Positions 6,258-7,389 of a stretch of DNA of 49,205 bases are shown in pieces. The stretch is from an uncultured Candidatus Berkelbacteria bacterium (GTDB lineage Bacteria > Patescibacteriota > UBA1384 > UBA12157): positions 1 through 49,205 of the forward strand of contig CAIRFN010000003.1 in assembly GCA_903877885.1 (NCBI GenBank), in the 5' to 3' direction. The notes under the pieces were generated by a model that searched no databases, had not been told where the DNA came from, and saw only the letters and a program-made list of their open reading frames with translations. Position 1 is the stretch's first letter, and each line of letters opens with the position of its first letter. The translations under genes were made by a program, and so were the position numbers.

Positions 6258-7389
6258 ATGAAAAATTATGATAATATATTTAGAAAAATTATTCATCCGG
6301 TAAATCTGTTCAGAGCATGGGATGAGTTCGTAATAGGCAAAAAGAAAAAAATCGATGTCATGGCATTTGCCGTGCATCTCGAAGAAAATATCTTTGGTCT
6401 CTGTCATAACTTAAAGTATCACAACTACAAGCACGATGTCTATCACTCGTTTTTTATTACAGATCCCAAACTCCGAGAAATTCACAAGGCAACGGTCAGA
6501 GACAGAGTTTTGCACCATGCTATTTTTAGGATTCTAAACCCTATTTTTGAACCTACATTTATCAACGATTCGTTCTCTTGCCGAATCAACAAAGGAAATC
6601 ATAAGGGAGTTGATCGACTAGCCAAGATGATCGGAAAAGTAAGCAAAAATCATACCCGACAATGCTTCGTTTTGAAATGCGATATCAAGAAATTTTTCGA
6701 CTCAATAGACCATCAAATTTTGTCGGGGATAATCCAAAAAAGAATTATCGATCCGGACGCAATCTGGTTGCTCAAAGAAATTATAGGCAGCTTCAGGAAA
6801 GCCGAAAATTACCAGTTAAACCTGTCCGATTTGCGGAAGCAAATCGAGAGAGAGAGAGAGAGAGAGAGAGAGAGAGAGCTGTCGGCTTCCAACCGACAGC
6901 CTTAGCAGGGGCATCCCGATTGGTAATTTAACCAGTCAACTCTTCGCTAATATTTATATGAATGAGTTCGACCAGTTTGTTAAACAAAAGCTCGAAGTTA
7001 AATTTTATGCCAGATATACCGACGATTTTGTGATTGTGTCGGACAATCAAAATTACCTCGAAAATCTCCTGCCAATAATCGAAACTTTTCTTTCCAGGCG
7101 ACTCAGACTAAGCCTTCACCCCGATAAAATCTCGATCAGAACGGTTCAAAAGGGTATCGATTTTCTCGGCTATAATGTATTCCCGCATCATCAACTCGTC
7201 AGAACCAAAACCAAAAAAAGAATTTTTAAGAAGCTCAAGGCAAGAGTTAAAGAATGTAAATCAGGAACAATCAGCGAGGAAACACTAAAACAGTCGCTTA
7301 ATTCGTTTCTCGGTGTATTAACGCACGCGAATACTTTTGAGCTATCCGAAAAAATTAAAAATCAATTTTGGTTTTGGCTTAAAGAATAA
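6258..7389 (+). CDS. DGR reverse transcriptase, frameshifted at a (GA)n tract (fragments 6258..6905 and ~6877..7389); phase-variable, recoded, pseudogene or assembly error
   Basis: Frame 1: DPKLREIH..TVRDRVLHHA, DSFSCR..KG, VLKCDIKKFFDSIDH. Frame 2: GIPIGNLTSQLFANIYMNEFD (DGR-type SQ motif), YARYTDDF, GIDFLGY. Adding one GA unit joins them into ~377 aa. Confidence 0.93.
6846..6878 (+). repeat. (GA)16G dinucleotide tract within the RT gene
   Basis: 33 nt of alternating G/A, read as ERERERERERE; bounded exactly by two perfect 8-bp hairpins. Confidence 0.95.

Follow-up and report, generated by a model that had tools for sequence, protein, structure and literature searches.

The window, as we call the whole stretch of 49,205 nucleotides that was analysed, contains a complete diversity-generating retroelement (DGR) consisting of a reverse transcriptase (RT) gene, an avd gene, a template repeat (TR) and two variable repeats (VRs) with adenine-specific changes (Table 1). 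All 23 mismatches between VR1 and TR, and all 21 between VR2 and TR, fall on TR adenines (44/44 in total), and the two target genes that carry the VRs are paralogous. The avd gene lies just upstream of the RT gene and is transcribed divergently from it, with 14 nt between the two start codons. Both the GIPIGNLTSQ motif of the RT (motif 4, of the [I/L/V]GxxxSQ type) and its YTDD motif are present, in the +1 frame. The best solved relative of the RT is that of the Bordetella phage DGR (PDB 8ub7, E = 7e-42), and its closest named relatives come from Patescibacteria/CPR genomes, e.g. Berkelbacteria.

Several further features surround these genes. The TR lies inside an ORF (5651-5971, plus strand) with a product similar to the C-terminal end of the two target proteins (...GSASGFLSK), as a remnant third copy of a target would be. 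Upstream of the DGR are ORFs at 41-1588 (minus strand), 1589-1903 (minus strand) and 2202-3017 (plus strand), among them a 515-aa large serine recombinase with Resolvase and Recombinase domains and a Replic_Relax-like ORF; a near-palindromic 22-nt repeat (1952-1993) is found between them. The presence of the large serine recombinase and the Replic_Relax-like ORF suggests that the DGR may sit on an integrated mobile island. An Rfam scan of positions 3000-8000 at a permissive threshold retrieved two sub-threshold chance matches and nothing more.

Table 1. Positions of the DGR components and of the repeat cassette within the RT gene (window coordinates).
Feature	Position	Strand	Remarks
Template repeat (TR)	5722..5852	+	Match to the two variable repeats
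Variable repeat 1 (VR1)	4015..4145	+	3' end of target gene 3245-4147
Variable repeat 2 (VR2)	5181..5311	+	3' end of target gene 4408-5313
avd (accessory variability determinant)	5896..6243	-	115-aa ORF; identical gene elsewhere has a Pfam bAvd match
RT N-terminal frame, motifs 1-3, 215 aa	6258..6905	+	Ends at TAG 6903-6905 (OFF allele)
5' hairpin CGATTTGC-GGAA-GCAAATCG, 8-bp stem	6827..6846	+	Last G is the first tract base
Perfect GA tract, (GA)16.5, 33 nt, variable element	6846..6878	+	Tandem Repeats Finder (TRF), 100% matches
3' hairpin GCTGTCGG-CTTCCAA-CCGACAGC, 8-bp stem	6878..6900	+	First G is the last tract base
+1 frame: remaining RT (GIPIGNLTSQ, YTDD, thumb)	6820..7389	+	Stop at 7387-7389

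The RT gene carries a cassette between motifs 3 and 4, in which a perfect GA tract is abutted on each side by a hairpin with an 8-bp stem, exactly as the original prediction had described it. Read as (AG)15A, the linker between the hairpins spans positions 6847-6877, and the tract is the sole dinucleotide array that TRF found in the 49-kb window. The MFE fold of positions 6815-6915 contains both hairpins (-33.2 kcal/mol, z = -3.5), and none of 200 shuffled sequences folded as well. Whichever frame is read, the repeat encodes alternating Glu and Arg residues, (Glu-Arg)n. The reading frames were also as claimed: the N-terminal ORF yields a 215-aa product that terminates before motif 4 and YTDD, and the +1 frame is open over its whole predicted length and carries both motifs. 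We considered an internal restart giving a split RT and rejected it: in the window there is no in-frame start from the tract to motif 4, and the first ATG of that frame (6958) lies past motif 4.

Near-identical contigs of the window's lineage differ in the length of the tract, which is 33, 29 or 27 nt with 0-2 other differences between contigs. Contig L001 matches window positions 2041-8884 over 6,840 bp with 0 mismatches, the sole difference being a 4-nt gap in the tract (29 vs 33 nt). The 29-nt allele (L001, P0123) joins the N-terminal part to the +1 frame and encodes a full RT of 375 aa. This is the full-length allele with "two fewer GA" that had been foreseen, down to its junction ...ERERESCRLPTDSLSRGIPIGN; the window is an OFF allele (33 nt), and its sister contig L001 is an ON allele (29 nt). 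Contig L003 has a 33-nt tract, and L002 a 27-nt, out-of-frame tract along with two other substitutions relative to the window. These two substitutions, at window positions 6636 and 6638, fall in one codon (AAA to CAT) and replace Lys by His in the RT segment ...MIGKVSKN.... A protein cluster at 90% identity around the 215-aa product contains 215-aa products on 10 contigs, 213-aa products on 2 and 375-aa products on 2, and also holds the 143-aa C-terminal ORF, recorded on 12 contigs.

The same kind of within-strain length polymorphism was found in a second lineage, similar to Berkelbacteria RIFOXYA2_FULL_43_10, with tracts of 27 (in frame), 25 and 23 nt and 0-1 other mismatches. The tract measures 27 nt in all five sequenced contigs L206-L210, 25 nt in L204 and 23 nt in L205; the corresponding products (374 vs 219 and 213 aa) use all three frames after the tract, and for the in-frame 374-aa products 13 and 5 contigs are on record. 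Between ON and OFF contigs the VRs do not differ at the level of the consensus, which cannot reveal minority variants, and no link to DGR activity is therefore visible. Looked at in contigs, then, the repeat-length distribution varies as the original prediction anticipated, and the outcomes it had named as speaking against it (a single in-frame length, or one fixed out-of-frame allele with no read-through and decayed homologues, together with unconserved hairpins) were not seen.

Length differences of this kind could in principle be generated by sequencing or assembly, with the true gene having one in-frame length only. PCR stutter is known for dinucleotide repeats, and three contigs in our survey (L121, L161 and L165) start at the GA tract or no more than 2 nt away from it; 10 of 124 contigs among the matches listed have no more than 50 nt of sequence 5' of the tract. 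Such contig starts are, however, also expected if assemblies break where tract length is heterogeneous within a sample. As a technical control we compared the length of a G9 homopolymer found upstream of other RTs in 13 contigs of two lineages from differing samples (L215-L223, at -28 from the ATG, and L224-L227, at -26). It was 9 nt long in all 13, pointing to reproducible calling of repeat lengths in these assemblies. Furthermore, 10 contigs share the 33-nt allele and 2 contigs carry each of the other alleles, the pattern recurs across the data of many projects, and the tracts among the matches listed (15-51 nt) are presumably short enough for one short read to span them (the name of one contig carries k141). 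We therefore regard an artefact as very improbable.

Phase variation by simple sequence repeats in coding regions is well documented, for example in the CT repeats of Helicobacter pylori outer-membrane protein genes and the poly-G or tetranucleotide tracts of Campylobacter, Neisseria and Haemophilus. As at these contingency loci, the RT gene contains a perfect short repeat within its ORF, the repeat varies in length between otherwise identical genomes, and full-length products alternate with truncated ones (375 vs 215/213 aa in the window's lineage, 374 vs 219/213 aa in the second). We propose, with a probability of roughly 0.8, that the GA tract is a simple-sequence-repeat phase-variation switch on the DGR RT. 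GA units would be gained and lost by slipped-strand mispairing in the hypermutable tract, thereby shifting the RT frame; a length that keeps the frame would allow a complete RT to be made, with (Glu-Arg)n in its loop, and any other length would end translation early, giving a fragment with neither motif 4 nor the YxDD catalytic site. The outcome would be a heritable yet reversible ON/OFF switch acting on mutagenic retrohoming. We infer that switching is frequent and reversible within populations, that the OFF state would abolish DGR activity, and that the tract arrangement is likely to be under selection.

The proposed switch differs from the classical contingency loci in several respects. What is switched in the window is no surface or restriction-modification gene but a DGR RT, which itself drives a second hypervariation system; the tract is placed in the middle of the gene, in a loop flanked by catalytic motifs, instead of near the 5' end; and one RT subfamily has conserved flanking hairpins, the hosts being CPR/Patescibacteria. 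General mutator switches are also known, in which tandem repeats in mutL or mutS affect mismatch repair genome-wide. Like these, the GA tract would heritably turn a mutagenic capacity on and off, but it would gate a mutagenesis that is aimed at two VR-bearing genes. The RT of Bordetella phage BPP-1 (bRT, 8ub7) belongs to the same RT family, with shared motifs that include IGxxxSQ, and its DGR has the same architecture of Avd, TR and adenine-specific VR; bRT, however, has neither a repeat nor a frame break.

At the site of the tract, between the aligned blocks, the Bordetella phage RT has about 15 residues, compared with 49 in the window RT. In an AlphaFold model of an in-frame Berkelbacteria RT (P0006; mean pLDDT 87.5), pLDDT falls below 50 only at residues 183-198 and 204-211, which are the cassette-encoded peptide, and the model thus places the GA tract in a predicted disordered surface loop between motifs 3 and 4. 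Other insertions occupy the same loop. Unrelated, in-frame palindromic inserts were seen there in L072 (1083-1241, a long stem), L053 (3496-3573) and L057 (1200-1280), the latter two carrying a CCCTCTCC...GGAGAGG hairpin, and hairpin-forming DNA in general seems to land at this loop. At the same position, (CT)n is followed directly by (GA)n in three RT lineages (L126, about 1090-1130; L182, about 53-104; L188, about 4920-4964); the resulting perfect palindrome has the potential to fold into a long hairpin or cruciform, and it encodes ...SLSLSLSRERERE....

To survey the family, we scanned a metagenome collection for (GA)7 followed, after 8-38 nt, by the coding pattern P-[IL]-G-N-L-T, and found at least 120 matching loci. 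GNLTSQ comes shortly after the (GA)≥7 tract in 120/120 of the matches listed. These represent at least 114 RT lineages at 90% flank identity, each with a pure (GA)≥7 tract at the same site. Tract length among the matches listed ranges from 15 to 51 nt (median 20), and it differs within 6 of the 8 listed lineages that have multiple members. The common form of the RT among aligned homologues has 349 aa and no insert, and RERERE... occurs in frame at the same site in 11 of the best 120 homologue matches. Related RTs thus carry ER-repeat inserts at the predicted place, with tract lengths that fall in all three frames, and the GA-tract switch is best read as widespread in CPR bacteria. The same DNA pattern had 0 matches in the viral contigs searched, so that the device looks cellular rather than phage-borne.

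Frames were called by tblastn of the N-terminal part combined with a motif-4 regular expression; the best 80 tblastn matches of a scan of GTDB genomes, all in frame, were left out of the frame statistics as biased. Among the matches listed, 102 distinct alleles comprise 19 in frame, 49 in +1 and 34 in +2. The in-frame share (19%) is below one third (binomial p = 0.0015, for lineages that are not fully independent). Both gene halves are fully open in 52 of the 59 listed out-of-frame alleles with enough flank (88%), and the N-terminal frame of the listed out-of-frame alleles stops at a median of 41 nt past the tract. The in-frame deficit together with the intact halves fits an ON state that is costly and only transiently visited; it would also fit leaky slippage at the RNA level.

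These data also bear on the possibility that the tract is a microsatellite evolving neutrally in a loop that tolerates it: weak mismatch repair would let the GA run expand, and the frame changes would be noise that randomly inactivates the RT. Such an explanation would agree with the predicted disorder of the loop and its acceptance of unrelated inserts, including the palindromic elements described above, with hairpins that are not universal (see below), and with consensus VRs that do not differ between ON and OFF contigs. On the other hand, a pure tract is kept at one site in at least 114 lineages even though synonymous codons could interrupt it, no other dinucleotide array exists in the 49 kb of the window, and the flanking stems of one subfamily are conserved at the nucleotide level. 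Moreover, intact halves in 88% of the testable OFF alleles among the matches listed require recurrent selection on the restored ORF. We therefore consider neutral expansion improbable and retain the phase-variation switch as the preferred explanation.

Simple repeats were also seen at a second position in related genes. In about 30 of 74 more distant CPR DGR RT genes (L038-L083), the short stretch between avd and the RT, or the 5' region, contains a simple repeat some 10-30 nt before the RT start codon (for example L058 2948-2957, L077 2944-2954, L043 2919-2936, L038 849-868 and L082 2970-2989). Most of these repeats are poly-G runs of 8-13 nt; three genes have (GT)8-9, one has (CT)10 and another (GA)10. 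Text resembling a -10 element usually comes next, ahead of the ribosome-binding site and ATG. The repeat might act as a switch at the promoter level, or it might have a structural role. As a second switch the upstream poly-G was rejected, its length being invariant in the 13 control contigs of two lineages.

Structure around the tract is weak over all lineages listed (mean fold z of -0.27 for the 5' flank and -0.51 for the 3' flank). Abutting stems are enriched yet confined to a minority: among the matches listed, 5' stems of at least 7 bp occur in 9.3% of lineages (1.6% in shuffles) and 3' stems of at least 6 bp in 7.9% (3.3% in shuffles), and we therefore rejected hairpins as a universal feature of GA tracts. 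A subfamily of 6 lineages, set independently by the upstream peptide [QRE]L.L[FS], presents a different picture, with a 5' stem of at least 7 bp in 5/6 lineages and a 3' stem of at least 6 bp in 4/6. The 5' hairpin is kept with compensatory changes, and in another codon phase, in L206, L099, L185, L142, L090 and L213; its arms are CGATTTGC/GCAAATCG in the window, CGATTTTCG/CGAAAATCG in L099 and L185, and GATTCG/CGAATC in L213, and the 3' arm is read as Q-I-E in one case and as T/E-N-R in another. The 3' stem is formed by unrelated GC-rich sequences (GCTGTCGG, GCAGCC, GCGGCC, CGGCGGCC, ACGGCC, GCGCCC) that occur in every one of the three codon phases, with unrelated peptides as their translations; GC-rich 3' stems of other sequence, often with a CUUCGG loop, stand in the same place in L099, L185, L191, L199, L214, L140, L147, L142 and L211. 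Judging from this table, which was read by hand and is not a formal covariation test, the hairpins of the subfamily appear to be conserved at the nucleotide level.

The prediction of conserved hairpins thus holds for a subfamily defined by its protein sequence, where stems persist through compensatory changes with arms in different codon phases, and does not extend to GA-tract RTs in general (5' stems of at least 7 bp in 9% of lineages among the matches listed). A kissing interaction between the loops had been suggested as well. The GGAA of loop 1 is indeed complementary to the TTCC of loop 2 in the window, but this complementarity is absent in the relatives L099, L185, L142 and L206, and we dropped it as a conserved feature. 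CTTCGG, which corresponds to a UUCG tetraloop on the sense strand, follows the tract in 9 of 114 lineages, as compared to 1 for its complement (matches listed), and this sense-strand excess may hint at an RNA structure. The flanking hairpins are probably a subfamily-specific addition that modulates slippage, acting at the level of DNA, transcription or translation.

The hairpins raise the alternative that recoding at the RNA level is the main route to the RT. The out-of-frame state would then be normal, a minority of transcripts or ribosomes would slip by 2 nt on the period-2 repeat with pairing perfectly restored, hairpins would stimulate the slip, and DNA length variation would be incidental. 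Among the matches listed, 81% of alleles are out of frame and yet have intact halves, in line with such recoding, and the excess of CTTCGG after the tract and the stems kept though read in differing codon phases point in the same direction. There are also precedents. In the Roseiflexus IS630 element, transcriptional slippage depends on a nascent-RNA stem-loop and occurs on a homopolymer-type T5C5 motif whose frame relation is fixed (PMC5009743); the window similarly has a stable stem-loop directly 5' of a slippage-prone run in an ORF whose downstream part lies in another frame, and the 5' stem of the subfamily likewise abuts the tract. Phage Mu and arterivirus nsp2TF provide examples of programmed -2 ribosomal frameshifting, at short, fixed, heptamer-like sites with defined stimulators (PMC5009743); here, too, the +1 frame becomes accessible by a 2-nt slip, and a period-2 repeat would let tRNAs pair again without mismatch.

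Several observations speak against recoding as the main route. The run in the window is a long dinucleotide repeat with a variable frame, whereas the transcriptional-slippage sites in PMC5009743 are homopolymer runs; RNA polymerase slippage here is hypothetical. Programmed frameshifting is expected to have a fixed frame relation and shift site; in GA-tract RTs, tract length and the needed direction of the slip differ between alleles, as reflected in the 19 in-frame, 49 +1 and 34 +2 alleles among the matches listed. The in-frame and both wrong frames occur inside single lineages with no fixed recoding geometry, and alleles in both wrong frames make a single fixed recoding event unlikely. The Berkelbacteria lineage, moreover, is dominated by in-frame alleles. 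A 3' structure beside the tract is present and covarying in one subfamily, with stems of at least 6 bp in 8% of lineages vs 3% in shuffles (matches listed), and most of the listed lineages have no hairpin. Comparison of G-U with A-C on the sense strand, as a test of RNA versus DNA structure in the stems, revealed no asymmetry: allowing G-U pairs, sense-strand stems were no more numerous than antisense ones. We give RNA-level recoding as the main route a small but appreciable chance.

The sequence at the 3' edge of the tract was inspected as well. Where a G ends the tract, TAA comes immediately next in 31 of 124 alleles and TAG in 2 more (matches listed; for example L084, L087, L093, L108, L116, L158, L176 and L195); where an A ends it, CG[C/A/G] comes next in 30 of the 124 (matches listed). 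A slip stimulated by the stop codon was rejected: roughly one allele in four has TAA or TAG adjoining the tract, but the N-terminal frame falls about equally often in each of the three registers (8, 11 and 9), with no enrichment of the frame that has a stop right after the tract.

Phase variation of the RT thus remains the reading supported by those checks proposed with the original prediction that were carried out, all of which agreed with it: the length alleles in contigs with the 375-aa ON allele, the relatives with ER repeats and the stems conserved in the subfamily. It is conceivable, and we put this forward only tentatively, that the two levels are combined across CPR bacteria in a two-tier rheostat on targeted hypermutation. 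DNA slippage would set the heritable frame and, in the hairpin subfamily, 2-nt slips would be promoted by the effect of the 5' stem-loop on RNA polymerase, by that of the 3' UUCG-type stem-loop on the ribosome, or by both, with OFF alleles leaking a little RT. If true, this would explain why about 80% of the natural alleles are out of frame with both halves intact in more than 100 lineages.

Phase variation by simple sequence repeats and DGRs are each already well known. For a DGR RT gated by a repeat, at one mid-gene site kept in over 100 CPR lineages, no description was found by full-text literature searches or by term look-ups in a 2024 DGR survey and a 2021 global DGR study, a scope that does not take in the main paper on CPR DGRs (Paul et al. 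2017).

To our knowledge, no natural system other than DGRs hypermutates proteins in a targeted way in prokaryotes. DGRs are especially common in CPR bacteria (Patescibacteria). A slippage repeat that breaks and restores the RT would provide these ultra-small bacteria with a stochastic, heritable gate, allowing a population to diversify and then lock in a useful variant, and would stack one hypervariation mechanism upon another. If this is true, many DGR RTs that metagenome annotations list as "truncated" or "split" would be alleles in the OFF state and not pseudogenes, and the ratio of ON to OFF alleles could be read from existing metagenomic reads and compared with VR diversity.
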